Positions 2,099-14,830 of a stretch of 64,000 nt of DNA are shown here, piece after piece; positions within the stretch are counted from its first letter, which is position 1; each line of letters opens with the position of its first letter. This DNA is from Thermoflavifilum sp. (GTDB taxonomy: Bacteria; Bacteroidota; Bacteroidia; Chitinophagales; Chitinophagaceae). The notes below the pieces were generated by a model that was not told the DNA's origin, made no database searches, and worked only from the letters and a program-made list of their open reading frames with translations. The DNA is taken from assembly GCA_023511875.1 (NCBI GenBank), contig JAIMAQ010000003.1, positions 189,936 through 253,935 on the forward strand. The letters are read 5' to 3'. The position numbers and the translations under genes are program-made.

Positions 2099-2232
2099 TT
2101 TTACTCTCCTATTTTTTGAGGGGTCTTATGCAAACTTAATTTGATCAAGCATATATTTAGAGGTGCAAAAAAGACATTTTAAGGGGTTAAATGCGGCAAT
2201 AATTATGCTTATCTTTGTTTAAAACTCAACGC

Positions 2233-3216
2233 ATGAAACATATTACACTATTGGTACCCTATATGAGTAATCTGGGAAGCATCGATAATCCACTACGGGC
2301 TTTTTCCGAAGTGAATAGATGGTTAAAGGCGAATGACCGCCCAGCTATGTTTCAGGTGGAACTAGCTGGGCTAAGTAAAGAAATCAGTTTAAATGAGGGT
2401 AAATATGTGATTCGTTTAGACAAACATATTGAAGAGATTAGCTCCACCGATTTCATCATCATTCCCGCATTAGATGGCGATATTGCAGAAAGCCTGAAGA
2501 TGAATCAGGCTTTTATTCCCTGGCTCATTCGGCAATACCGTTGTGGTGCAGAGATTGCAAGTCTTTGTGTAGGCGCGTTTTTATTAGGAGCTACGGGCTT
2601 GCTCAATGGTAAATCTTGCTCTACTCACTGGCGAGCCATGTGTTTGTTTACAGAAATATTTCCTGAAGCAAATCTGGTGGCCGATAGAATCATTACCGAT
2701 GAATGCGGTTTATATACCAGTGGAGGAGCTTTTTCTGCTGCTAATCTAATTCTCTATATCATTGAAAAATTTGCAGGGCGAGAAGCTGCTATCTATTGTG
2801 CAAAGATGTTTCAGATCGACATGGATCGTTGTAGCCAGTCGCCATTTATTATTTTTGACAAACAAAAAGATCATTCCGATGAATTGATTAAAAAAGCACA
2901 AGAATATATTGAAAAGAATTACGCCCATAAGATTACGGTGGCACAAATTTGCTATATGTTGGCCTTAAGTCGAAGAAATTTTGAACGAAGATTTAAGCAA
3001 GCCACCTCTAATACGGTGGCTGCTTATATCCAGCGAGTAAGAATAGAAGCCGCTAAAAAACTTTTGGAAACCAGTGGGAGAAATATAAATGAAGTGATGT
3101 ATGCCGTAGGTTATCAAGATACTAAGGCCTTTCGAGAAGTGTTTCGGCGGATTACTGGTCTTTCACCCATAGCCTATCGAAATAAATACAATCCAAAAAC
3201 AATTCCCCAATATTGA
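2233..3216 (+). CDS. GlxA-type transcriptional regulator (DJ-1/PfpI-like N-domain plus AraC-family HTH)
   Basis: The C-terminal AraC HTH reads ITVAQICYMLALSRRNFERRFKQATSNTVAAYIQRVRIEAAKKLLE...GYQDTKAFREVFRRITGLSPIAYR. The N-terminal half resembles a class I glutamine-amidotransferase/DJ-1 domain. The ATG at 2233 is preferred over the TTG at 2215. Confidence 0.8.
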   Translation: MKHITLLVPYMSNLGSIDNPLRAFSEVNRWLKANDRPAMFQVELAGLSKEISLNEGKYVIRLDKHIEEISSTDFIIIPALDGDIAESLKMNQAFIPWLIRQYRCGAEIASLCVGAFLLGATGLLNGKSCSTHWRAMCLFTEIFPEANLVADRIITDECGLYTSGGAFSAANLILYIIEKFAGREAAIYCAKMFQIDMDRCSQSPFIIFDKQKDHSDELIKKAQEYIEKNYAHKITVAQICYMLALSRRNFERRFKQATSNTVAAYIQRVRIEAAKKLLETSGRNINEVMYAVGYQDTKAFREVFRRITGLSPIAYRNKYNPKTIPQY

Positions 3217-3223
3217 CGCAAGC

Positions 3224-3778
3224 ATGTCTGCTACCTATGTCTTTAATCATATAAACGCAAATCATATGTCGTCGAATCAACGGGAAACATATACCATACC
3301 TCCTCAAACACGCATTGGACATGTGCATTTAAAGGTGGCCAATCTAGAACGATCGTTAAAATTTTATCGAGACTTATTGGGTTTTGAAATAACCACTCAA
3401 TATGGTCATCAAGCCATCTTTCTTTCGGCTGGAGGATACCATCATCATATTGGGCTCAACACCTGGTATAGCCAAGACGCCCCTCCTGCCCCGATCCACA
3501 CGGCCGGATTATATCATTTTGCCATTCTATATCCTACCCGAAAAGATTTAGCCCTGATTTATCATCGACTATTAAAAGCTCACTATCCACTGGTAGGAGC
3601 TAGTGATCACGGAGTTTCAGAAGCTATTTATCTACAAGATCCCGATGGAAATGGGGTAGAACTGTATTGGGATAGACCAGCTGAACAATGGCCACGCAAG
3701 CCAGATGGTACCCTACATATGTATACTCGACCTCTTGATTTGGAAAATCTTTTAAAAGAACTCGATGAGAAGAAATAA
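3224..3778 (+). CDS. VOC family protein (glyoxalase/extradiol dioxygenase fold)
   Basis: IGHVHLKVANLERSLKFYRDLLGFEI ... SEAIYLQDPDGNGVELYWD are typical VOC beta-alpha-beta-beta-beta motifs. Confidence 0.75.
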   Translation: MSATYVFNHINANHMSSNQRETYTIPPQTRIGHVHLKVANLERSLKFYRDLLGFEITTQYGHQAIFLSAGGYHHHIGLNTWYSQDAPPAPIHTAGLYHFAILYPTRKDLALIYHRLLKAHYPLVGASDHGVSEAIYLQDPDGNGVELYWDRPAEQWPRKPDGTLHMYTRPLDLENLLKELDEKK

Positions 3779-3804
3779 ATTAGCGTTCTATTTTAGAGTT
3801 ACAA

Positions 3805-4539
3805 ATGATGCAAGCCGAAACGCATAAGCTCGATATCCTCGCCATAGCCGCCCATCCAGATGATGTAGAACTTTCTTGCGCAGGTGCCTTGATCATACAC
3901 GTACAAATGGGGCATCGGGTAGGGATTCTGGATTTAACCGCTGGAGAATTGGGCACACGCGGCACACCCGAAACAAGAGCCCAGGAGGCTAAAAAAGCCA
4001 CGGAAATCATGGGCATTGACATTCGAGAAAATGCTGGCCTACCCGATGGATTTTTTCAAAACGAGAGAGAACATCAATTGCGCATTATTCCCTATATCCG
4101 CTATTTTCAACCAGATATTGTGCTCACCAATGCCGAACGAGATCGCCATCCCGATCATGGCCGCGCAGCCGAGTTGGTAGAAACGGCTTGTTTCCTCTCT
4201 GGTCTACGCAAGATTGAAACCCATTGGAAAGGCCATCCACAACAAGCCTGGCGTCCTAAGCACATTTGGCATTTTATTCAAGACGAAGACTTAGAGCCAG
4301 ATTTTATTGTAGATATCAGTACTGTCATGGAGAGAAAACTAGAAGCCATCCGTGCCTTTGCCTCCCAATTTTTGGCCGACCCTAAAGACCCACTGCAAAC
4401 CTATATTTCCACACCGGCCTTTTTTGAACACATCATTCAACGAGCCAGTATGTGGGGTTACCGCATCGGTACCCAATATGGTGAAGGATTTACCTCTCGA
4501 AAAAAACTGGGCGTGAGTCATCTAAAACAATTTCTCTAA
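3805..4539 (+). CDS. bshB1: bacillithiol biosynthesis deacetylase BshB1 (LmbE/PIG-L family)
   Basis: LDILAIAAHPDDVELSCAGALI...LDLTAGELGTRGT...HPDHGRAAELV contains the LmbE-family AHPDD and HxDH zinc motifs. bshA is also present in the window. Confidence 0.8.
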   Translation: MMQAETHKLDILAIAAHPDDVELSCAGALIIHVQMGHRVGILDLTAGELGTRGTPETRAQEAKKATEIMGIDIRENAGLPDGFFQNEREHQLRIIPYIRYFQPDIVLTNAERDRHPDHGRAAELVETACFLSGLRKIETHWKGHPQQAWRPKHIWHFIQDEDLEPDFIVDISTVMERKLEAIRAFASQFLADPKDPLQTYISTPAFFEHIIQRASMWGYRIGTQYGEGFTSRKKLGVSHLKQFL

Positions 4540-4551
4540 AATCCCAGAGAG

Positions 4552-5472
4552 ATGAAACATCTTATCCTCGCAATTGTTCTGCTTCTGCTTAACTGCACGA
4601 GTTGGGCACAACATTATCGCATCGACCGTAAATTGCAACGTCAATTGGAAGCGCTAGTAAAGCCTTTCCACGGTCAGGTGGGTATTTATGTACATAAATT
4701 AGGTACACGCAAAGAGGCGGCTATCAATGCCGATTCACTTTTTCCTACAGCCAGCATGATTAAAGTAGCCATACAAGCAGTGATTTTTCAGCGTATTGTA
4801 GATAGTCAATTGCAATATCATCAAAATCTCTTATACCGCGATTCGCTGTACTATCCTGGGGTAGATATTTTAGGCATGGCCAAAGATAGCACGCACATTG
4901 AGCTCAGTAAAGTAGTGATGCTCATGATCACTGAAAGCGACAACACCGCTGCTTTATGGTTGCAATCGCTCGCTGGTGGTGGAACAGCGATTAACCAGTG
5001 GCTAGCCAAGCATGGGTATCAATACTATCGGGTAAACTCTCGCACACCAGGCCGAGAAAAAGCATACCAGGAATATGGATGGGGACAAACAACTCCCAGA
5101 GAAATGGCTAGATTTCTAATTCAACTCCGAAGAGGAGAACTCGTTTCTCCCGCTGCCAGCGAACGTATGTATCGCAATCTATGCCATATCTATTGGGACG
5201 ATGTGGCTTTATCTCAAATTCCGCCATATGTACAAGCTGCATCTAAGCAGGGAGCCGTAAATGATTCTCGCTCGGAAGTAGTGCTGGTCAATGCTCCTCA
5301 TGGTGATTATGTTTTTTGTGTAGATACGAAAAATATTGCCGATCAAAGCTGGACACACAATAATGAGGCCTGGCAACTGATTCGCAATGTATCGGCCTTG
5401 CTCTGGCATTATTATGAGCCTCATGATACTTGGAGCCCTCCTGCAGGATATGAACAGTTTATGCAAGAATAA
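4552..5472 (+). CDS. class A beta-lactamase-related serine hydrolase, secreted
   Basis: It has a signal peptide, an SxxK motif (ASMIKV), an SDN motif (ESDNTA) and a KxG-like motif (SKQGAV, which deviates from KTG). Confidence 0.7.
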   Translation: MKHLILAIVLLLLNCTSWAQHYRIDRKLQRQLEALVKPFHGQVGIYVHKLGTRKEAAINADSLFPTASMIKVAIQAVIFQRIVDSQLQYHQNLLYRDSLYYPGVDILGMAKDSTHIELSKVVMLMITESDNTAALWLQSLAGGGTAINQWLAKHGYQYYRVNSRTPGREKAYQEYGWGQTTPREMARFLIQLRRGELVSPAASERMYRNLCHIYWDDVALSQIPPYVQAASKQGAVNDSRSEVVLVNAPHGDYVFCVDTKNIADQSWTHNNEAWQLIRNVSALLWHYYEPHDTWSPPAGYEQFMQE

Positions 5473-5498: not shown

Positions 5499-5556
5499 GC
5501 TGTGGGCTCTCCTTCCGCTCACTTCGATACGCTTCGCTACTCAGTGACGGTGGAGC
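5499..5556. repeat. direct repeat B, copy 1 (about 58 nt)
   Basis: gctgtgggctctccttccgctcacttcgatacgcttcgctactcagtgacggtggagc recurs with a few substitutions and one indel at 5995..6052. Confidence 0.9.
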
Positions 5557-5577
5557 CTCATCACATCGACCTTCAAA

Positions 5578-5636
5578 TTTTCTGGCAGTCTTGAATTCTC
5601 TTTGCTTCTTTCTTTGTTTCAAGACAAAGAAAGAAG
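5578..5636. repeat. 59-nt repeat A, copy 1, with a perfect 13-bp hairpin
   Basis: The unit is ttttctggcagtcttgaattctctttgcttctttctttgtttcaagacaaagaaagaag. The stem is cttctttctttgt / acaaagaaagaag (5605-5617 and 5624-5636) with loop ttcaag. Confidence 0.95.
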
Positions 5637-5653
5637 GAATATCTCTCAACCAT

Positions 5654-5712
5654 TTTTCTGGCAGTCTTGAATTTTCTTTGCTTCTTTCTTTGTGTCAAGA
5701 CAAAGAAAGAAG
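5654..5712. repeat. 59-nt repeat A, copy 2
   Basis: Same unit as 5578..5636 with 2 substitutions (gaattTtc; loop Gtcaag). Confidence 0.95.
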
Positions 5713-5924
5713 ATTACAACGTTATCCATCAAATCAAACATCATCAATCATCTTCCACATCGACCTTCAGAAAAATGGCGTGAAGAAATGGGCGAACATG
5801 AGCGTGAAACGGAAAATGAGCTGAGATATGGATAAGAGTTGAAGTATCAAAAAGCTGATTCAGTACACACAAGCTCATAGGGGTATTTCATTTTCCGTAG
5901 CGAAATGGAGCCCATTTCAGCCAT

Positions 5925-5983
5925 TTTTCTGGCAGTCTTGAATTTTCTTTGCTTCTTTCTTTGTTTCAAGACAAAGAAAGAAG
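5925..5983. repeat. 59-nt repeat A, copy 3
   Basis: Same unit as 5578..5636 with 1 substitution. Confidence 0.95.
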
Positions 5984-5994
5984 AATACATCATT

Positions 5995-6052
5995 GCTGTG
6001 AGCTCGCTTCCCGCTCACTTCGATACGCTATCGCTACTCAGTGACCGTGGAG
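5995..6052. repeat. direct repeat B, copy 2
   Basis: gctgtgagctcgcttcccgctcacttcgatacgctatcgctactcagtgaccgtggagc matches 5499..5556. Confidence 0.9.
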
Positions 6053-6080
6053 CTATTATTACTCAACAACCGCGTTTTGT

Positions 6081-6248
6081 TTAGCGGCTGTTACCTTCCA
6101 CTATCCTTATCTCCTCCTCTGTTAAATCATACAACTTATACACCAACCTGTCTATTTCTTGCGCTAATTCTTGTGTGTTGGCTTGGAGGTTTTGTTTTTT
6201 GGCTGAAAGAATTTTACTTGCCATTACCTCGATTTGATCAATAAAAAT
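6081..6248 (-). pseudogene. orphan 3-prime fragment of an Eco57I/TaqI_C-type DNA methyltransferase gene (C-terminal ~55 codons only)
   Basis: Hand translation of the minus strand gives FIDQIEVMASKILSAKKQNLQANTQELAQEIDRLVYKLYDLTEEEIRIVEGNSR*. This aligns with the C-terminus of the 1030-aa methyltransferase (..EKQIDQLVYKLYGLTDEEIKIVEGEK*). No upstream coding body remains: the frame is closed at 6258-6260 and abuts the stop of the 756-aa gene. Confidence 0.75.
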
Positions 6249-6253
6249 AAATT

Positions 6254-8524
6254 TTATTTAATACTTTCACAAAGTGCTTCATAATGTTCTTTGTCTTTTT
6301 TTTCTAAAACTGAAAGTACAGTTTTTATTGCAATTTCGATCTCATGTATGTCAGGAAATTTTTGTATATGTTCTGGATTTTCTTCGTGTGAATATTCATC
6401 AAGTATTTTAAGTGTTGTTTGTTTTTCAGATGCTTCCGTAAAACCTTTAAAAAATTTATCAGCTTTATCTTTAAATTTGCTACCATCTGGATATTTTACA
6501 AACAAATATGACTCAAGAAACCTTCTTGCAATATTTGGCAAGATGTAAAGTAATTCAAAGTTGTTTTTATCGTTTGAATCGTTGAATTTTTTTAATTCTG
6601 AAAAAAGATAATTATACTCACTTTTGAAATTTCTTAAAACCTTTGGCAATTCGGTTATTGTTGAAATTTTATCATCATTCGATTTAATCTTTTTAATTAA
6701 ATAAAAGTTTTCTTTATCTTTTTTACTTCTTCTATTTGTTGTTCCATCAGGATCGCCTTTAACCATATCTTTTAAAAGATTAAAAAAATCAAAGTTATGT
6801 GTAGTAATAAATACCTGTCCACAATCTTTTAATTTTTCTGAAAGAAATCCGTAAACATGAAAAATATGATTAGAATCAAGGCTGGATACAGGATCATCAA
6901 TAAATATTATTGCCTTTGATTTATCAAAATTATTTTCTTCTAACTTGGTCATAAAGTAAATTAAAGAAATAATATTTTTTTCTCCTGTGCTTAGGTTTTT
7001 TGCTACAATTCCTGCCCGATTTACTTGATAAGTTCCATCATCAAAAGAATTTAATTTTATTTGATCGTCTCGAAAAAATTGCTTTAGATATTTGTTTACT
7101 TTTTCTGCTCCAATATTTGCCTGTTTTATTTTTGAATTTATACTATTTATTGTCTCTACAATATTACCGAATTCTTTTTCTTTTTCTTCCTTTTGTTTTA
7201 TTAACTCTTTTATTTGATTATTTAGCTCGTAATATTTTATTTCATCAATAGCTTTTGCTGAATAGTGATTGATTAATTTTAACTTAGTATCTTTCTTTTG
7301 ATTTTCTAACTGGTTAATTTTAGCGTTGTTATTATCAATGATAGTATTAACATCGTTAATATATTGATTAATCTGATTTTCAAGTTTGGTTACAGGTAAA
7401 TCAATAATCAGGATGTCAAATGGTTTGTTCTTTTTTTCTTCTATTTTTGTGATTAAAGTATCTAGTAATTTTATATAATTACCTTCTAATTTACTCTTTA
7501 ACTCCTCTTTCTTTTGTTCATATTCTTTTGAATAATCCGGGTAGAATCTTGCCTTATCTGGGAATTGAATTTTGCTTATGGAATTATTATGATTGTTTAT
7601 TTCTTGCTCAATCGACTTCAAATCCTGCATTAATTTATCGTATTCTTCTGAAAAGTGTTTATTTAGTTTATCAAATAAATCTTCAGGCAGTTTGTTTCCA
7701 CAGAACTGACAGTATTCTTCATTTTTATGTAAATCCAATCCTTTTCTAACCCATTGATTTAATTCTGGATTACTTTTAAGTTTTTCAATTATTTGTTGAG
7801 CGGATATCTTTTTTTCGCAGATATTTTTAACCTTTTGATAAAGTGATTGTGCTTTTAATTCAATAGAGAGTGTATTGATAGATTGATAACTCGTTTGGTC
7901 CCTATAAAGTCGAAGATTTTTACTTTCTTCATCGCCTGATAAAATGTAATTTGAAATATTTGCACTTAATTCTTCAATTTTTTCTTTTAAGTTGTTTTTA
8001 TCAAATTTTCGGGGATTAGTAATGCCTAATATTCTTCTAATTTCACTGGCTTTGTTTGTTAAATTATTTTCTAATTGTGTACTTTTTTCCTTAAGTTCTC
8101 TTTCAATATTTGTTTTTTCTTCTTCAATTTTTTGTTTTTCCTCTTCTTTCTTTTTTAACTCTTCTTGTAACCCAATTGATTCTTTACCCATAATTAGCAC
8201 TGGATTAATTCTATGGTTTTCGTCGTTCCATTTGAAATTTTCTTCAACAAAATCTTCATTAAAAACACAGATAGGAACTTCTTGATCGATATTACTTTCT
8301 GAGATATTTCCATTTTCTGTTTCCAAACAAAATTTTGTACCGGGGTAGTCCTTATGTAAATTTCTCTCTTCAATACATCTAAATAATCTAGAAAGGGAAG
8401 TTTTACCTGAATAATTCCAACCATAAAAGAAATTAAATTGTTTAAATTCTGAGCAACTATTATCCCACTCAAAATTTTTATATAAACCCAAGTTTTCAAT
8501 TTTTGAAATTTTCTTTATTCTCAT
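6254..8524 (-). CDS. RloC/PrrC-like ABC-type ATPase (AAA_13-like) with coiled-coil CxxC hook; putative anticodon nuclease
   Basis: The ATPase motifs are Walker A GWNYSGKT (aa 35-42), ABC signature LSTGEK (511-516), Walker B IIFIDDP (539-545) followed by SLD, and an H-loop TTH (574-576). About 470 K/E-rich coiled-coil residues lie between them and contain YCQFCG (C272/C275). The C-terminal NIARRFLESY...YSHEE has the R-x3-E...H arrangement described for the PrrC/RloC nuclease domains. Confidence 0.7.
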   Translation of the reverse strand: MRIKKISKIENLGLYKNFEWDNSCSEFKQFNFFYGWNYSGKTSLSRLFRCIEERNLHKDYPGTKFCLETENGNISESNIDQEVPICVFNEDFVEENFKWNDENHRINPVLIMGKESIGLQEELKKKEEEKQKIEEEKTNIERELKEKSTQLENNLTNKASEIRRILGITNPRKFDKNNLKEKIEELSANISNYILSGDEESKNLRLYRDQTSYQSINTLSIELKAQSLYQKVKNICEKKISAQQIIEKLKSNPELNQWVRKGLDLHKNEEYCQFCGNKLPEDLFDKLNKHFSEEYDKLMQDLKSIEQEINNHNNSISKIQFPDKARFYPDYSKEYEQKKEELKSKLEGNYIKLLDTLITKIEEKKNKPFDILIIDLPVTKLENQINQYINDVNTIIDNNNAKINQLENQKKDTKLKLINHYSAKAIDEIKYYELNNQIKELIKQKEEKEKEFGNIVETINSINSKIKQANIGAEKVNKYLKQFFRDDQIKLNSFDDGTYQVNRAGIVAKNLSTGEKNIISLIYFMTKLEENNFDKSKAIIFIDDPVSSLDSNHIFHVYGFLSEKLKDCGQVFITTHNFDFFNLLKDMVKGDPDGTTNRRSKKDKENFYLIKKIKSNDDKISTITELPKVLRNFKSEYNYLFSELKKFNDSNDKNNFELLYILPNIARRFLESYLFVKYPDGSKFKDKADKFFKGFTEASEKQTTLKILDEYSHEENPEHIQKFPDIHEIEIAIKTVLSVLEKKDKEHYEALCESIK

Positions 8525-8536
8525 ATCTCCTCCTTT

Positions 8537-11500
8537 TTATTTTTCCCCTTCCACTATTTTAATCTCCTCATCGGTTAAACCATATAACTTATAGACGAGC
8601 TGATCAATTTGTTTTTCGTACTCGTGGACTTTAGCTTGTTTGGCGGAATTTTCCAAATAGTCGTCGTCTTTGGTGATAGCGAGGATTTTATCTACAAGGT
8701 CAATAAGTGGTTTTTGGTCAATGTTTTCAAAATTTGGAGTGGGTATCCGCCCTACATATTGGGCGTCATATCGTGTACTTCGGATAGCATTGCTGTAAAT
8801 AAACTTGTAAAGCAGCCAAGCAAAAAGTTTCGAATTATTAATGCCAAGCAGAAATCTTATATCAACTCTTTGATCCGTAACAAAAGTACAAGATATTGTT
8901 TCATAAACGAGGTTATAATCCATATCCAATGCTGCTTGAAGAAAGAAATGTGGATATGGATTTTGGACATGGGCAATGGCTAGCTGATTCAGAATCTTAG
9001 GCCTGAGCAAATATGCATACTCCCGCTTGTCAAATTTACTGATGTCAACAAAATCTGTAGCTTTATCTAAGTGATAAGGAAAAAGCTGTGCTCCCCTATA
9101 GATTGGAGTTGCACCGGGAAATTTGGCAACCTTACTTTGCCAGTTAAGGCCTCTTTCAATAGAGACATAATCTTCCCAACGAGCTTTAAAACTGTTAATT
9201 ATTTTTTTGATAACCGCCAACTCTTTGGGGTATTGACCGGCTAACAATACTCTGCGGTTGTGGAATATATCCTTAGAGACTTCCCCTAATTCTAAAACTT
9301 CATTGCCGTCGTAAAGACCTGTTACATAAAATCCCTGCTGTTTCACTTTCTGTTTTACAAAAATGACCTGCTCAAGTTTAACAAATTCAAATGCCTTGCC
9401 GCTGTCGATTAATTTTTGTAGTGTTGGAAACAAAAAACTTGCGCAAGAATTCCATCCTAAAGAGTAGCAAAGCGATTTTGGGACTATAAACGAGTTGACC
9501 CCATTAACTTGGCAAATATCATCTGCAACATAAATGAAATAAATTGCAGAGTTTTTAGTGGAAGACCGCCATTCATTATATCGACTATCAAGTGTTTTCT
9601 TTTCGTTCTTGTTCAAGTCAGCACCATACGGCGGGTTTCCAATCACCACATCAAAGCCACCTTTTTCGTGGAATACCTCAGAGAAGTACACCTCAAAATC
9701 AAATTCCGTATGCCCGTTAGTGATTTGAATAATGAGTTCGTCAATCTGCTTTCTATAATCCTGCTTTTTACTTGCGTTTGTCTCGTTGAAATAGAGCGGT
9801 TTCAATTTTTCAAGTTTATTAAACAAGTCAGCGTTGAATAGGCCTTTTTCAACGCCCAAAAGCGAATTGCCCTGCACAATCTTATAATCCAAGTTTGGCA
9901 AGGGCTGAACTTTCGCACGGTCTTCTTCATCCACAATAAGCGATAGCCAGAGACGGAGTTTAGCGATTTCCACTGCACCTGGATCAATGTCTACGCCGTA
10001 TAGGTTATTTTGTATGGCCTCACGCTTAAAATTATAGGATGTTCTCTCATCATTTCTACCGATGTATGGAGTAAGGGCATTTCGGGCTCTAATAATCTCG
10101 TGCATCATGCCTACTAAAAAGGCGCCGGAGCCAACGGCGGGATCGCATACGCGAATTAAGGCGAGTTTTTCATCTATGAGTTTAGCGTGCTTACGGATAC
10201 TCTCTGGAAGCTTGGCTTTATCGTATCTACCTTTGTAATTTTCGTTGTTAGTAGTTTTTTCAAGATACGTTTCATCATGCTCTATCACGGCTTCGCCGTA
10301 TTTGATAAGCGTTTCAATATCCTCTTTACTCACTTTCCCATCCAGCTCGGTCGCCAGATAATTCGCCAAGCTTTCTTGGCACATATAATGAACAATTTCG
10401 GGGGGAGTGTAGTAAGTGCCTTTGGATTTTCTATCCTTTATTTCCAGAAGATTTTCAAAAACTTTACCGAGCATTTCAGGGTCAATGGCTACTTCTTTCT
10501 CCAGCGGTTCATCTTCCTTGACTGTAAAATTGTAGCGGTCAAAGACATCTAAAATACCATCGCCAGTATCGCCATCTTTTGTTTTATTATTATTAGAAAA
10601 TAGTTCATTAGGAATGAGAATATCTGAATGCACCCAATCGTAATTGCCAATGGGGTCAAATAGACCCCCATTTAGGAATGGGATTTTGCAATTGAAACGG
10701 CTGTAGTAATCATCATCATGACGGCGGTCAATGCGTAGTGCTTCGTAAAACAGAGGTTCGAGTATATCATTGAAAAAGTTGTCATATGTACAGTGTTTGC
10801 CCTCGAAAAGTTCTCTTAAAAATTGTTTTGATCCAGTGCCCCATTGTGAATCACGTTTCACACCAAACCAACCTTTCTTTTGCAAAAAATATAAAAATAC
10901 AATCTGGCCCAAAAGTTTTTTGGCGAAATCAACCGTGTCAACATTCTTTTCCTTGAAATCAGCTTCTACTTTTGGGTTTTTCTTGACTATGTCATCAAGC
11001 GATTCCTTAAGTCGCAGAAAAAGCTCACGGTACTTTTCAAAAAATTCTTCGGTGACGCGCTCAACGCTAAAGACTTCTTCTAAGTCAGCAAGAGTTGGGC
11101 TGGCTTCATCATTTAAGAGAAGAGGTAAAAGACGGCTTTGGGCAGTATGGCTGTTTTCGTTTTTGCCGACTAAAAAAGAGTGGCGCCGGGCAGGGGTAAA
11201 TTCTTCTTCAACTTTGCCTTTTTCATTAAACTTATATTCCATCTTAACGAGAGAAAAGCGCCAGTCATCATTATTAGGCGATACAAAAGCCACAAGTGCT
11301 GCATCTCTCAACACACCACCACGGCTGCCTTTAAGGTATTTAGCAATAAAATTTCTTTGTTTTGTTCTGGCCCGCTCAAGGCTGGTTTCCCTTATAAGAT
11401 GAACAATAAGAATATCTATCTCCTTCCCTTCGGGGTCTTTGTATTTTCCTATGCGTTCTAAAGATTCAACTGAATCAGCAAAGTCGTCAAAGATGAGATT

Positions 11501-11629
11501 GCCCTTATAAACAAAATGGGCATCATCAATGTGTTTGAGAATATTTTTTATCAAATAAACAAATTGCTCTTTGTTAAAAGAGTTTTGCAAGGCTTTTTGT
11601 ATGAGGTTTTTTGCTATATCTTCATTCAT
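8537..11629 (-). CDS. Eco57I/MmeI-like (type IIG/IIL-like) gamma-class N6-adenine DNA methyltransferase with C-terminal target-recognition region
   Basis: The methyltransferase motifs are motif X KGTYYTP (403-409), motif I DPAVGSGAFL (496-505) and motif IV NPPY (665-668, nt 9626-9637). Family-typical helical-domain strings are FLYFLQKKGW, IPFLNGGLF and FDRYNFTVKE. The tail is TaqI_C-like (LVYKLYGLTDEEIKIVEG). Confidence 0.85.
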   Translation of the reverse strand: MNEDIAKNLIQKALQNSFNKEQFVYLIKNILKHIDDAHFVYKGNLIFDDFADSVESLERIGKYKDPEGKEIDILIVHLIRETSLERARTKQRNFIAKYLKGSRGGVLRDAALVAFVSPNNDDWRFSLVKMEYKFNEKGKVEEEFTPARRHSFLVGKNENSHTAQSRLLPLLLNDEASPTLADLEEVFSVERVTEEFFEKYRELFLRLKESLDDIVKKNPKVEADFKEKNVDTVDFAKKLLGQIVFLYFLQKKGWFGVKRDSQWGTGSKQFLRELFEGKHCTYDNFFNDILEPLFYEALRIDRRHDDDYYSRFNCKIPFLNGGLFDPIGNYDWVHSDILIPNELFSNNNKTKDGDTGDGILDVFDRYNFTVKEDEPLEKEVAIDPEMLGKVFENLLEIKDRKSKGTYYTPPEIVHYMCQESLANYLATELDGKVSKEDIETLIKYGEAVIEHDETYLEKTTNNENYKGRYDKAKLPESIRKHAKLIDEKLALIRVCDPAVGSGAFLVGMMHEIIRARNALTPYIGRNDERTSYNFKREAIQNNLYGVDIDPGAVEIAKLRLWLSLIVDEEDRAKVQPLPNLDYKIVQGNSLLGVEKGLFNADLFNKLEKLKPLYFNETNASKKQDYRKQIDELIIQITNGHTEFDFEVYFSEVFHEKGGFDVVIGNPPYGADLNKNEKKTLDSRYNEWRSSTKNSAIYFIYVADDICQVNGVNSFIVPKSLCYSLGWNSCASFLFPTLQKLIDSGKAFEFVKLEQVIFVKQKVKQQGFYVTGLYDGNEVLELGEVSKDIFHNRRVLLAGQYPKELAVIKKIINSFKARWEDYVSIERGLNWQSKVAKFPGATPIYRGAQLFPYHLDKATDFVDISKFDKREYAYLLRPKILNQLAIAHVQNPYPHFFLQAALDMDYNLVYETISCTFVTDQRVDIRFLLGINNSKLFAWLLYKFIYSNAIRSTRYDAQYVGRIPTPNFENIDQKPLIDLVDKILAITKDDDYLENSAKQAKVHEYEKQIDQLVYKLYGLTDEEIKIVEGEK

Positions 11630-11632
11630 AGT

Positions 11633-14600
11633 TTATCCATTAATTAAATATTCTGATAAGATTACTTCTCTTGGCCCAAAAGTATGCGCTGCACTTTCCG
11701 CGATATGGCTTTCCAAAAATTCAGATGGGATGTTGTTTTGCAAAAGCGCAAGCACTCTAAGAGGGTTAGGTGGTCCTTTTTCTAGTTCTTTATTCAATAC
11801 TTGATTTACTGTTTTTGCGGTTTGTTTGGGTATAGCACCTTCCTCAAATTGTTGCATCACTTTTTTATAATAATCTATTTGGTCTTCGGTAAGCTGTCGG
11901 GTATCCATAAAGACCGCTTTAAGGATTTTTAATACCTGCGTTGTGCTCTCTCTGCCGCTCCGTTTTGCTTTTAGCTCTATTACTTCTTCGGTAGTGGCGA
12001 GTTCAAAAGCTTGTTTGTTTTTCTCAAGTTTATCGTAAAAGTCTGCGTTTAATTTCTCACGAGCGTCTTCTCGGTTAGATTCAAGGAGTTTTGCTGCAGT
12101 AATAAAGTCAATTTCTTTAGCATCTCCGCTACCTGTAAGAAAGAATTTTTGAAGTTTGCCTTTTCTAAAATAAGTCAGAAGCTGATTCTCTTTTACGTCA
12201 TGTTTCTTGGCTGTTCGTGCCTTTTTGGGCAATCGTTTAATCTTTTCAAATAAATCAGGATCATTATCGCGTATGTCTCTAATTATCTGGAGATACTTTA
12301 ATTCGCTTTCATCATCTTCGTCTTCACCAGTGATAGTTTTTTTGGAAATGAGGCGGTTAAAAAGTTCATGTGATTCTATTACTTCTCCTTCAGTAAGAAG
12401 TTGTGCATCAGCACCTAAAAGCGTTATAAATGCTTGTATTTTAGTCTCTGCGGCTTCTTTGAGTTTTATTTGGTCGTTGGATTGTTCGGTTGGGAAAAAA
12501 TTAAATATGTATATTTTATCAAAAGTTGTATCAACGCGGTTGATTCGACCGACGCGTTGCATAAGCCGGGTTGGGTTCCAGGGAATATCATAGTTAATAA
12601 CTACATTGGAGCGGTGTAAGTTTACGCCTTCAGACAAAACTTCAGTAGTAATAAGGATTCTGTAGTCGTCTTTAGGGAAACGCGCTCGAGCGTCAAAATT
12701 TTCGATTACTTTTTCTCTTATGGATGCACTTGACCCGCCAGTGAAAGAAAGAACTCCGCCCGGGAAGTTTTTCCCCAGATTTGCAGCAAGATATTCAACC
12801 GTTTCTTTTGATTCTGAAAAAACAATTATTTTATTTTTCTTAAAGATATGTCGCGATGAAAGAAGATCAACAAACGAAAGTAATTTTGGATCGCGCTTTA
12901 CGGTACTCCATAGTTTTTGTATCACTTTTAGAATAAGCAGATCGCTTTCTAAGTCTTCTTTAAAGTCTTCATCAAAATCTTCTGCTGGATATTTCTTTGC
13001 CTTGTCACTTTCTATTAGTCTTTGAATTGCTTCATCGTCATCATTTTCCAAGAGTTCAAAGATTTTGTTGGCGTATTTTTTACTGACATAAACACTACCT
13101 TGCTTAAACTCCTTTAAGAAAAGCTCATAATAAGAAACAAATCGGTTAACGGTATTTCGGAAAGCGTAAAAACTGCTTTCCAATCGTTTAATGAGCAAGA
13201 TTTTCATAAATCTTCCCATATTTTTTTGAGACTGAATTTCTAACTGATCGGGTCTGTCGTCTCCTTTGTAGTAAAGCATGGGCATATATCGGGCGTACTT
13301 AAATTTTTGAGCAATAAGCTCAACGGTTTTATTGAAAATTTCATTTTCTTCTTTGTTTAACTGATAGAATACGGGTTCCGGAGTTTCCACTTCTGGAAAT
13401 TTAAGATTCTGATTTTTTAGGTCATCGGAGAAGTAAGTTTCAATTTCTTTTCTCGTACGCCTTACCATAAGATACTTCAAAACCTTTTCTCGGATCTCTT
13501 TTGCGTTTTCTTTTGCGGTTTGTATATATTTTGCATGATCTTTTTTTCTATCCAATTTTTTAATTCTCTGTTCAAGCTGGCCAAAAAAAAGTTCAAGATT
13601 TGGCAGATTGGGGATTGTGCTTCTCCTTGCATTTTGAAAAAGTTTAATCTGACTTAAAATATCCTTTGGAGTATTATTAAGCGGAGTAGCTGTGACAAGT
13701 ATTATTCTTTTACCTCTGCAAATCTGTGCAAGTTTTTCGTAAGTGATGTTTGACTCTGTTCTGAACCGATGTGCTTCGTCAATAAAAATGTTCTTGTATT
13801 TTTCAGTGCCTCGCTGAATAAGATGGTCTAACTTGCCGAGAGACTCAAAGTCTGCTGGCACGCGGAAGTCTGAAAAAACATTTCGCCACGAGCCAGGATT
13901 TGCTTCTTCCAAAAGCACAGGAGGTGCTAATACAAGGGTGCGACCATCAAGCTGGCTGGCCAGCATAGCAGAAACATAAGTTTTACCAAGACCTACTACA
14001 TCCGAAATAAAAACACCGCCGTATTCTTCAAGAATTTTTTTTGCGTTTAATACGGCTTGCTCTTGATACTCTAATCGTTTAAATCCTATCGGAGCATATT
14101 TGAAGATAACTTCATTCGTCTGACGAAGTTCATCTTTGAAATACTCATATAAAAATTTCAGATAAAGCTCATAAGGGGTAATTGTATTATTTAGCCAAGT
14201 TTTTTCTTGAATAGTTTGTATGTATTTGTCGCTCACGTCTACGGCGTCTTTCCAAAGCGCTTCAAATTTGGCTCTGGCAAATTCATAATCAGCACGGTTT
14301 TTTAATTCTACATTAAATTCAAGATTATCTACCAAACCAGCTTGCGTAAAATTGCTTGAACCGGTGATTACTCGCCCTACATCGCGATCGCCTTCAAAGA
14401 AAGACATAATATATAACTTGGCATGGAGCTTTTCTGTTGGATAAGCTTTTATTTCTATCTTTCCACTTTTTAACCATTCCAAAAATTTCATTACTCCTTC
14501 TTCAACCTGTTTGCTATCTTTAGAATCATCCATTTCGTTTACAAGTGATTGTGAAAAAAGTTCTTTTGTTTCAGCATGAGAAAATTGCAGTTCTGATTGT

Positions 14601-14830
14601 TTCGCCTTTTCTATTAATTCTACAGTTTTCTTGCTGGTGCTAATACCAATAAGGATTCTAATGTTTTTTGTTTTCTCTAAAGATGTATACAACTTATAAA
14701 AACCACTTGTATAGAAGTAACCAACTAAGACATCAAAAAATTCGGTGTCTTTGATCAATGCTTTGAAGCGCTCAAGAAGGTTTTGCTCGCGTTCGTTTGT
14801 GATAAATGTGAGATCGGAATGAGTAGCCAT
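11633..14830 (-). CDS. PLD-family (single HKD) nuclease domain fused to an SNF2/SF2 helicase
   Basis: The HKD motif is LHAKLYIM...GSSNFT (H136, K138, N160; nt 14351-14425). The helicase motifs are I GLGKT (280-284), II DEAH (351-354), III VTATPLNN, and C-terminal motifs SEGVNL and QRVGRINR. About 250 aa at the C-terminus have no motif I recognise. Confidence 0.85.
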   Translation of the reverse strand: MATHSDLTFITNEREQNLLERFKALIKDTEFFDVLVGYFYTSGFYKLYTSLEKTKNIRILIGISTSKKTVELIEKAKQSELQFSHAETKELFSQSLVNEMDDSKDSKQVEEGVMKFLEWLKSGKIEIKAYPTEKLHAKLYIMSFFEGDRDVGRVITGSSNFTQAGLVDNLEFNVELKNRADYEFARAKFEALWKDAVDVSDKYIQTIQEKTWLNNTITPYELYLKFLYEYFKDELRQTNEVIFKYAPIGFKRLEYQEQAVLNAKKILEEYGGVFISDVVGLGKTYVSAMLASQLDGRTLVLAPPVLLEEANPGSWRNVFSDFRVPADFESLGKLDHLIQRGTEKYKNIFIDEAHRFRTESNITYEKLAQICRGKRIILVTATPLNNTPKDILSQIKLFQNARRSTIPNLPNLELFFGQLEQRIKKLDRKKDHAKYIQTAKENAKEIREKVLKYLMVRRTRKEIETYFSDDLKNQNLKFPEVETPEPVFYQLNKEENEIFNKTVELIAQKFKYARYMPMLYYKGDDRPDQLEIQSQKNMGRFMKILLIKRLESSFYAFRNTVNRFVSYYELFLKEFKQGSVYVSKKYANKIFELLENDDDEAIQRLIESDKAKKYPAEDFDEDFKEDLESDLLILKVIQKLWSTVKRDPKLLSFVDLLSSRHIFKKNKIIVFSESKETVEYLAANLGKNFPGGVLSFTGGSSASIREKVIENFDARARFPKDDYRILITTEVLSEGVNLHRSNVVINYDIPWNPTRLMQRVGRINRVDTTFDKIYIFNFFPTEQSNDQIKLKEAAETKIQAFITLLGADAQLLTEGEVIESHELFNRLISKKTITGEDEDDESELKYLQIIRDIRDNDPDLFEKIKRLPKKARTAKKHDVKENQLLTYFRKGKLQKFFLTGSGDAKEIDFITAAKLLESNREDAREKLNADFYDKLEKNKQAFELATTEEVIELKAKRSGRESTTQVLKILKAVFMDTRQLTEDQIDYYKKVMQQFEEGAIPKQTAKTVNQVLNKELEKGPPNPLRVLALLQNNIPSEFLESHIAESAAHTFGPREVILSEYLING

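Follow-up and report, generated by a model that had tools for sequence, protein, structure and literature searches.

How does the end of a methyltransferase gene come to lie directly behind a complete RloC-like gene? The question is raised by a 64,000-nucleotide (nt) stretch of a Thermoflavifilum sp. contig (JAIMAQ010000003.1; here called the window, on which all coordinates are based unless another locus is named). Here a helicase gene, a methyltransferase gene, and an RloC-like gene stand on the same strand and are followed by an orphan methyltransferase tail. Numbers prefixed with L denote compared loci from other assemblies. Our answer, to which we give a probability of about 0.6, is that insertion placed the RloC-like gene behind a methyltransferase of a different (A-type) tail, duplicating the 3′ end of that gene, and that the present helicase-methyltransferase pair was joined to the unit later by recombination within the tail core. 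The features concerned are as follows.

11633..14830, minus strand: PLD(HKD)-SNF2 helicase/nuclease partner of the methyltransferase, 1065 amino acids (aa) (PADLOC "HKD+Snf2," E=1.1e-41).
8537..11629, minus strand: Eco57I/TaqI_C-type N6-adenine DNA methyltransferase (type IIG-like), 1030 aa, whose B-type tail is native to it.
8546..8608, minus strand: core of the intact methyltransferase tail; it forms the upstream repeat arm, and homology to RloC modules elsewhere has its left limit here.
6254..8524, minus strand: RloC-like ABC ATPase/anticodon-nuclease-type gene, 756 aa, G+C content (GC) 0.26 (AAA_13, E=2.6e-139; PADLOC PDC-S06, E=5.7e-180).
6081..6257, minus strand: orphan A-type methyltransferase tail, a 58-codon open frame with its stop at 6081-6083 (E=6.8e-25 against the tail profile).
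6093..6155, minus strand: conserved tail core of the orphan (IDRLVYKLYDLTEEEIRIVEG), the downstream arm of an imperfect direct repeat (48/63 nt and 17/21 aa against 8546-8608).

The minus strand from 6260 to 6081 translates as a stop, IKFIFIDQIEVMASKILSAKKQNLQANTQELAQEIDRLVYKLYDLTEEEIRIVEGNSR, and a second stop. The orphan frame is shut upstream by a TAA at 6260-6258 that overlaps the end of the RloC-like gene, whose own stop codon occupies 6256-6254, and homology to the tail family is clear from "QIE" at 6236 onward. A profile of 63 tails, each ending a long methyltransferase open reading frame (ORF), was searched against 2,927 six-frame segments of the window and matched exactly two of them: the orphan (84.6 bits), which spans profile positions 3-51, and the intact tail (E=6.4e-19). 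When a 53-aa fragment of the orphan was compared with 5.8 billion proteins, 58 matches were obtained down to E=1e-12, and all were methyltransferase tails. These matches were proteins of only 42 to 93 aa, although thousands of long methyltransferases share the tail, and their uniform shortness is partly a property of how the word-indexed search selects candidates with a 53-aa query. The orphan contains the consensus of the terminal two-helix segment (...ILxAKK..ADT..E.EIDxLVYxLYGLTEEEIxIVE) of Eco57I/TaqI_C-type methyltransferases (COG1002/YeeA-like, type IIG-like). It is joined in frame to neither a specificity nor a catalytic domain, the frame being shut at 6258-6260 and the intact AAA_13 gene ending at 6254. 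A search of PDB sequences with the tail found no solved homologue.

Taken at the level of sequence, these comparisons confirm the fragment as a C-terminal tail relic of a restriction-modification (R-M) methyltransferase, comprising its last ~55 codons, and not as a gene. The original prediction, made by inspection, of an orphan methyltransferase C terminus abutting the RloC-like gene is borne out by the 84.6-bit profile match and the 58 database matches, and the similarity held its significance in both kinds of search. On the minus-strand translation, the closed frame at 6258-6260 and the position beside the RloC-like stop at 6254-6256 were also as described. The alternative of an intact small gene found no support, start codon and boundaries being unconserved among relatives. 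The fragment had been said to be missing from the ORF track, which was mistaken: a mechanical ORF list contains a 47-aa ATG ORF at 6081-6224. As to composition, the RloC-like gene is indeed AT rich (GC 0.26), but the fragment, at 0.37, is intermediate and not host-like as had been claimed; the methyltransferase stands at 0.39, the helicase at 0.36, and the whole window at 0.43.

Over the 21 residues IDxLVYKLYxLTxEEIxIVEG, the orphan and the intact tail at 8546-8608 agree in 17 residues and in 48 of 63 nt, exactly as counted in the original prediction. The longest identical run is 11 nt, and the 15 differences split 2/3/10 over codon positions 1, 2, and 3. The full imperfect direct repeat is 92 nt long and 71% identical; its arms share a reading register and have a single gene between them, which upholds the earlier statement that tail repeats flank the RloC-like gene. 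Because most of the nucleotide differences in the core fall at third codon positions, so that the 76% nucleotide identity reflects a conserved protein motif, the two window tails are old relatives whose similarity is maintained by selection at the protein level and not recent copies of each other. Precise deletion of the RloC-like gene by recombination between the tails, which had been proposed, is unlikely in the window, where the cores share 48 of 63 nt with no identical run above 11 nt. If a RecA-type deletion did occur there, it would preserve the reading frame and re-create a complete methyltransferase.

The two tails also belong to different types. The tail core (the last ~21 residues) is nearly universal in the family, and the ~30 residues that precede it fall into types: the orphan is A-type (QIE.LVDKIL.AKK.NP.ADTS..E.EID), and the resident methyltransferase (domains Eco57I, N6_Mtase, MmeI_Mtase, and TaqI_C; "type IIG restriction enzyme-methyltransferase" in PADLOC) is B-type (LVDKILAITKDDDYLEN.AKQAKV.EYEKQID). 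When the 120 best homologues of the resident enzyme are compared, about 85% carry B-type tails, and those with A-type tails are similar to it over the N-terminal 60 to 75% only. Between such shuffled methyltransferases, homology sets in again with the tail core. Swaps thus take the specificity domain and the tail's 5′ half together, and the B-type tail is native to the resident subfamily; the A-type orphan therefore is not derived from the present gene. The family is very large, with 7,987 matches at E<=1e-100. Specificity-domain shuffling within it is seen as 72 to 79% identity over the N-terminal 60 to 75% with unrelated C-terminal parts, and a third tail type (...FISSFYGLTKENVEFLKNYEVEFRLSDEGQ) occurs.

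The same gene-orphan arrangement is found behind another methyltransferase in L095, a 24.6-kb assembly contig. There, a 1279-aa helicase-less methyltransferase (DUF7149/DUF7814/Eco57I/TaqI_C) with an A-type tail is followed after 12 nt by an RloC-like gene (80% aa identity to that of the window) and then by IKFIFINQLEVEAGKILSVKKQNPQSNTQELEWKIDRLVYKLYKLTEEEIRIVENKTVVE and a stop. The two loci have the following stretch in common.

6096..8596, minus strand: one-piece block common with L095 (3′ part of the upstream core, stop, 12-nt spacer, RloC-like gene, junction, and orphan).

Window positions 8596..6096 align with L095 positions 7929-10438 at 87.5% identity over 2,512 nt in a single colinear alignment, which starts inside the upstream tail core and runs to the end of the orphan core. 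The stop, spacer, and start (AAAAATAAAAAGGAGGAGATATGAGAATAAAG) are identical in the two loci, and so is the gene-orphan junction (TATTAAATAAAATTTATTTTTATT; ~29 nt, window 6271-6243). No relationship exists between the two methyltransferases upstream of the core, and no synteny between the flanking genes. The RloC-orphan junction predates the present helicase-methyltransferase pair, because L095 shares it behind a different, helicase-less methyltransferase elsewhere. The alignment shows that the core-to-orphan unit was passed on, by inheritance or transfer, as one block. Within L095, the upstream tail core and the orphan core match in 47 of 49 nt (a 49-nt repeat, 96%), and precise deletion by tail recombination is more plausible there. 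Judged by its sequence, the L095 arrangement looks like the original, or near-ancestral, one: an A-type gene with its 3′ end duplicated around an inserted gene. The orphan is read in the -1 frame with respect to the RloC-like gene; no sign of frameshifting was seen, although no test for it was made. The stop-region junction (ATTAAATAAAATTTATTTTTATT) is the same at window 6243-6271 and L095 10263-10291.

The sequence on the far side of the orphan was compared in the same way.

5995..6080, minus strand: region 3′ of the orphan, containing a REP-like hairpin element and colinear with the corresponding region beside the L001 A-type orphan (score 68, against 20 ± 4.4 for shuffles).

In L001, the A-type orphan and its REP flank stand behind another methyltransferase and a different extra gene. 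The REP-like family that follows the window orphan also follows the L095 orphan. Since the flank is colinear with that of the L001 A-type orphan and carries a REP-like element as in L095, the 3′ end of the orphan belongs to the A-type lineage. No copy of the L001 REP consensus itself was found in the window at <=4 mismatches.

The gene between the two tails behaves as a unit of its own. RloC is defined by ABC-ATPase motifs and a coiled-coil insert with a CX2C zinc hook, together with a C-terminal triad, Arg-X3-Glu-X36-52-His, in which a Ser often precedes the His (Davidov and Kaufmann 2008, PMC2610378). The window protein covers positions 6-702 of the 713 in the AAA_13 profile and is full length. 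A Walker A motif (GWNYSGKTS) and a CQFC zinc-hook motif can be read in it, the latter kept in six relatives, and its C terminus has RRFLE, likewise kept in relatives, then 41 residues, then SH. The predicted protein therefore has the sequence features by which RloC is defined (ABC-ATPase, CX2C, and triad); some databases label its homologues "wobble nucleotide-excising tRNase." Relatives at 70 to 80% aa identity occur in Bacteroidota (Acetofilamentum) and Ignavibacteriota ("Ca. Tepidiaquacella"), and the GC of the gene is 0.26 to 0.29 in the window, L016, L019, L095, L096, L097, and L098, against 0.30 to 0.54 for its neighbors. In every comparison, the 3′ limit of homology falls at the stop codon or <=9 nt from it. 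The 5′ limit is the tail core in L019, L095, and L098 (left edge in the window at 8596 for L019 and L095 and at 8617 for L098) and exactly the start codon in L096 and L097. L019 and L098 show the mirror arrangement of an A-type tail, the RloC-like gene, and a B-type orphan. The RloC-like gene is thus best read as a foreign, mobile module.

A different target is seen in L096 and L097, type I R-M loci in which the RloC-like gene (75% aa identity) precedes hsdS and is truly embedded. It is flanked there by a direct repeat of the hsdS 5′ end (KQTEIGMIP...), 26 nt in L096 and 17 nt in L097.

L096 5254-5279 and 7603-7628: arms of the hsdS 5′-end repeat.
L097 7954-7970 and 10303-10319: arms of the hsdS 5′-end repeat, with nucleotide homology in both loci running exactly from start to stop codon.

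These repeats appear to be the same insertion signature at a different target. More distant AAA_13 genes in L101 and L080, only ~25% identical to that of the window, are bracketed by tail repeats of 127 nt (74%) and 107 nt (80%), respectively. A metagenome scan with the RloC-like protein found two distant loci without tails and was dominated by low-complexity peptide patterns.

Tail duplication extends beyond RloC-like genes. We scanned 80 loci collected by tail alignment, one genome per species, in which most tails end intact genes of 900 to 1600 aa. The profile scan found orphan tails in 19 of the 80, and at all 14 loci with a main tail and at least one orphan, every orphan lies downstream and on the same strand. 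As a control, the intact methyltransferases of 55 loci were cut into fourteen 50-aa segments, and, after masking of the gene, each segment was searched against its own locus. Extra copies on the downstream, same-strand side exist for the last segment only (12 of 55 loci); segments 2-8 have no extra copies at all, and segments 9-14 are found elsewhere only in a tandem paralogue and in one marginal 13-aa match. Scan and control together show a recurrent and polar duplication of the last ~50 codons, downstream and on the same strand.

The repeats measure 50 to 210 nt at 70 to 96% identity in twelve loci besides the window and L095; measured from the stop, they start 94 to 170 nt upstream and finish anywhere from -49 to +59 nt. 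As a rule the left junction falls within the final 3 to 16 codons, so that the insert supplies the C-terminal codons and stop of the "intact" gene. That the insert often brings these last codons and the stop implies an origin behind another tail. The genes enclosed by the repeats share their strand and are for the most part defense candidates.

Families between the repeats: AAA_13/PDC-S06; radical-SAM/PDC-M30A; HEPN_LA2681+TPR; DUF2971/PDC-S31; DUF3800/PDC-M04A; DUF3644/PDC-S19; one IS200-type transposase; several unknowns.

Orphans without an intervening gene occur in L015 and L099. The 5′ ends of the orphans vary over profile positions 2-36, with remnants of up to ~190 aa. An identical "QIE" breakpoint in many loci was considered as the mark of a site-specific mechanism and was set aside as largely an effect of ascertainment, since the 53-aa query favors fragments of the same extent and the ends vary in the unbiased scan. 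L068 has three tandem tail copies at 10094-10404 with a 127-nt period, 83 to 85% identical, and no gene between them. In L005/L006 (8412-10219), a lone A-type orphan follows a PLD + radical-SAM gene in housekeeping surroundings with no methyltransferase nearby. In L013, a related radical-SAM gene (PDC-M30A) stands between two tails that are 89% identical over 210 nt.

The history that we favor for the window would have begun with attachment of the RloC-like gene behind an A-type Eco57I/TaqI_C methyltransferase, an event that duplicated approximately the last 55 codons; the upstream copy would have kept the methyltransferase intact, and the downstream copy would have been orphaned right after the new stop codon. 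Tail core, stop, RloC-like gene, orphan tail, and REP-like flank would then have been inherited or transferred in one piece. To judge from the homology limits, the B-type methyltransferase body and the PLD-SNF2 helicase may finally have been joined to this unit by recombination within the tail core, the place where specificity-domain swaps end. The order of events, the core recombination, and the mechanism of the first duplication are what we infer; the original duplication was not seen, because no isogenic empty-site allele was recovered.

Two other histories had been offered in the original prediction. If an older A-type methyltransferase at this site had been truncated when the helicase-methyltransferase-RloC cassette arrived, the orphan would simply have been left behind, and its tail type, which differs from that of the resident methyltransferase, would be accounted for; the whole cassette lies below the window in GC, in L099 a new 3′ end has displaced a tail and no gene lies between them, and L001 has an A-type orphan with REP flank behind another methyltransferase and another extra gene. 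The core-to-orphan block and its junction are common to L095, however, so the present three-gene cassette cannot have made the junction, and the GC of 0.26 for the RloC-like gene against 0.36 to 0.39 for the helicase and methyltransferase argues against arrival as one unit. These observations contradict truncation by the present cassette, and we consider it improbable. Insertion of the RloC-like gene behind the present methyltransferase, with the tail copies diverging in place, would explain the 92-nt direct repeat of 71% in the same register around a single gene, a common pattern elsewhere, where the repeats are 80 to 96% identical. But the 5′ halves of the tails cannot be aligned as copies, with A-type QIEVMASKILSAKKQNLQANTQELAQEID against B-type LIDLVDKILAITKDDDYLENSAKQAKVHEYEKQID, the latter 5 residues longer. 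The B-type tail is native to the resident subfamily, the closest relatives of the orphan are A-type tails of other methyltransferases, and third positions account for 10 of the 15 core differences, the picture to be expected if two functional genes had been separate for long. The kind of event proposed, insertion with tail duplication, therefore stands, while this methyltransferase as its target does not, and in its literal form the proposal is very improbable. A single-period Campbell integration of a circle of RloC-like gene and tail into the B-type methyltransferase was rejected, the orphan 3′ end and REP-like flank being colinear with the A-type locus L001 and not with a B-type recipient. 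That the resemblance of the tails is due to chance or low complexity, which might be raised for so short a fragment, has a negligible probability given E=6.8e-25 with two window matches only, 58 database matches, and 87.5% nucleotide identity to L095 in a 2.5-kb block.

Several points weigh against the history of insertion behind an A-type gene followed by core recombination, or limit it. The 5′ halves of the L095 tails are far more diverged than their cores, which requires gene conversion or a later crossover. The exchange may have run either way, with a new methyltransferase taking the place of an old one upstream of an RloC-orphan unit already at the site, or with the unit moving in behind a resident methyltransferase. 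Since the 80 loci were chosen for similarity to a tail, loci with two tails were more likely to enter the sample. An appended gene is present without an orphan in L102 and also in L016, where 138 nt were available. Exact-protein look-ups with the beta-lactamase and the RloC-like protein gave only short same-strain contigs ending at the REP array or inside the orphan core, with no empty-site or alternative allele among them; the RloC-less relatives L079 and L102 are only 50 to 64% identical. The orphan is, moreover, well preserved for a relic (84.6 bits, where intact tails have a median of 78.9), and the ratio of nonsynonymous to synonymous substitution rates (dN/dS) between the window and L095 orphans, 0.67, rests on 22 differences and fits neutrality or constraint alike.

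This preservation could mean that the orphan has been kept for a function, as a small peptide mimicking the C-terminal helices of the methyltransferase or as a cis element (a homology arm for exchange or excision, or an element of the 3′ untranslated region [UTR]). The frame is open in every orphan examined in this respect (window, L001, L005, L008, L095, L099, and L101), the orphan core is almost unchanged between the window and L095, and substitutions among orphans are mostly at third codon positions. That last pattern is equally expected, however, if the orphans were recently cut from functional genes. No start codon is conserved: the window ATG at 6224 is GAG in L095, and the first ~38 codons of the L095 orphan contain no ATG, GTG, or TTG. 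The 5′ ends are scattered over profile positions 2-36, several orphans are visibly degraded (L019 [...EDERKEVYWSV], L062, and L057), and the dN/dS of the orphan lies above the 0.37 of the RloC-like gene. We regard a retained function as quite improbable. Measurable decay of the window orphan was also considered, on the hint of P-to-L and D-to-N changes at near-invariant positions that might mark a pseudogene, and was abandoned; the profile score is as high as those of intact tails, and dN/dS is uninformative. Promoter and terminator scans around the fragment gave results no better than shuffles, and Rfam searches found no RNA family anywhere in the window. The orphan is most likely noncoding baggage, or at most the 3′ UTR of the RloC-like gene. 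It still offers family-wide homology on the far side of that gene.

The surroundings of the orphan are rich in repeats. Between the beta-lactamase gene and the orphan lies a repeat-rich array (5499-6050) made up of a 78-nt element in three copies (5570-5647, 5646-5723, and 5917-5994), with a hairpin TTCTTTCTTTGT...ACAAAGAAAGAA, and of a REP-like element of 35 to 50 nt in two copies (5499-5548 and 5995-6048). Same-strain metagenome contigs all break ~75 nt past the beta-lactamase stop, at the first REP copy. L012, the only other assembly of the locus and from the same strain, ends not at the REP array but inside the orphan core, at window ~6120; this break could reflect k-mer sharing with other tails in the community or real population heterogeneity. 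A REP-like element (GGTCGCTGAGTAGCGAAGCGTATCGAAGCGACC) occurs elsewhere in arrays that flank small (95- to 99-aa) GIY-YIG genes beside orphan tails, and in L076 the GIY-YIG ORF runs into a tail-like end (...LTEHEIKIEEGNLK). Beyond the array, the plus strand of the window from 2215 to 5472, convergent with the defense operon, encodes an AraC/DJ-1 regulator, a glyoxalase, a PIG-L deacetylase, and a beta-lactamase, according to a same-strain look-up.

L001 10160-11050, L095 10430-10596, and L076 142-441: REP-like/GIY-YIG sites.
3805-4539, plus strand: PIG-L deacetylase.
4552-5472, plus strand: class A beta-lactamase (Beta-lactamase2, E=1.6e-45).

Displacement of gene ends is familiar from the rhs and cdiA genes, in which a new 3′ module, arriving by recombination in a conserved part of the gene, shifts the old end downstream, where it persists as an orphan. 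The conserved recombination region of Rhs/CdiA lies upstream of a variable C terminus, and a functional toxin-immunity pair survives in the orphan. Here, by contrast, the conserved piece is the extreme C terminus, and the orphan is without a functional domain. The locus also resembles target-recognition-domain swapping in type IIG and type I methyltransferases (Furuta 2010) in that the 5′ half of the tail switches type with the specificity domain, but swapping by itself does not account for another tail copy on the far side of the next gene.

Among processes already described, the nearest is insertion with long target duplication (Nobusato et al. 2000; Furuta, Abe and Kobayashi 2010, PMC2853133), in which R-M units are bounded by direct repeats of >30 bp, often spanning a stop or start so that the target gene survives. 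The window resembles it in having an insert without a mobility gene, repeats of >30 bp, and an R-M locus as its setting. It differs in that the insert there is an R-M system and the target an ordinary chromosomal site, whereas here the insert is an accessory defense gene and the target a methyltransferase 3′ end (or an hsdS 5′ end). In addition, the window repeats are of different tail types, the left junctions in the loci compared usually fall inside the last codons, and no empty site was recovered.

Embedding of defense genes in other defense systems has as its classical cases prrC within EcoprrI and the rlo genes of Campylobacter. A survey of embedded genes (Payne et al. 2024, bioRxiv 10.1101/2024.01.29.577857) found 96.7% of them oriented as the host system and put forward the idea of a "genomic sink"; it states that the mechanism of embedding "remains to be explored," and the word "recombination" is absent from its text. 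Our loci agree with that survey in the families involved (PDC-S06/AAA_13, DUF3644 [HEC-08], DUF3800, and DUF2971), in orientation, and in the linkage of RloC to R-M loci. Unlike the genes embedded between those of a system, the window gene is the last in its operon, with only the orphan, the REP array, and the convergent beta-lactamase gene on its 3′ side. The tail repeats are a structural footprint not reported in that survey. No prior description of duplicated methyltransferase 3′ ends flanking defense genes was found in open-access literature text, which is weak negative evidence. Taken singly, the fragment is an ordinary gene relic; what is new is a variation, the recurrent and polar duplication of tails, on a known kind of rearrangement.

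It is possible, though we advance it tentatively, that the conserved 3′ core acts as a portable docking site, so that modules of tail core, gene, and orphan tail could recombine behind any family member in any genome and could be excised again, the orphan serving as second homology arm. This would be a mechanism for the embedding of defense genes in R-M operons. If so, docking modules would carry RloC/PDC-S06, DUF3644/HEC-08, DUF2971, DUF3800, radical-SAM, and HEPN genes, and their excision would restore an intact methyltransferase. Defense genes inside or at the end of R-M operons are well documented, and the orphan tail is a physical scar of their attachment. How they come to be embedded is thereby made testable, through tail-core recombination, its dependence on RecA, circular intermediates, and precise excision by which the methyltransferase is made whole again. 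In annotation, "hypothetical proteins" of 40 to 90 codons downstream of methyltransferases should be flagged as gene relics. The same arrangement provides a search rule for new accessory defense genes: whatever stands between a methyltransferase tail and its orphan copy.

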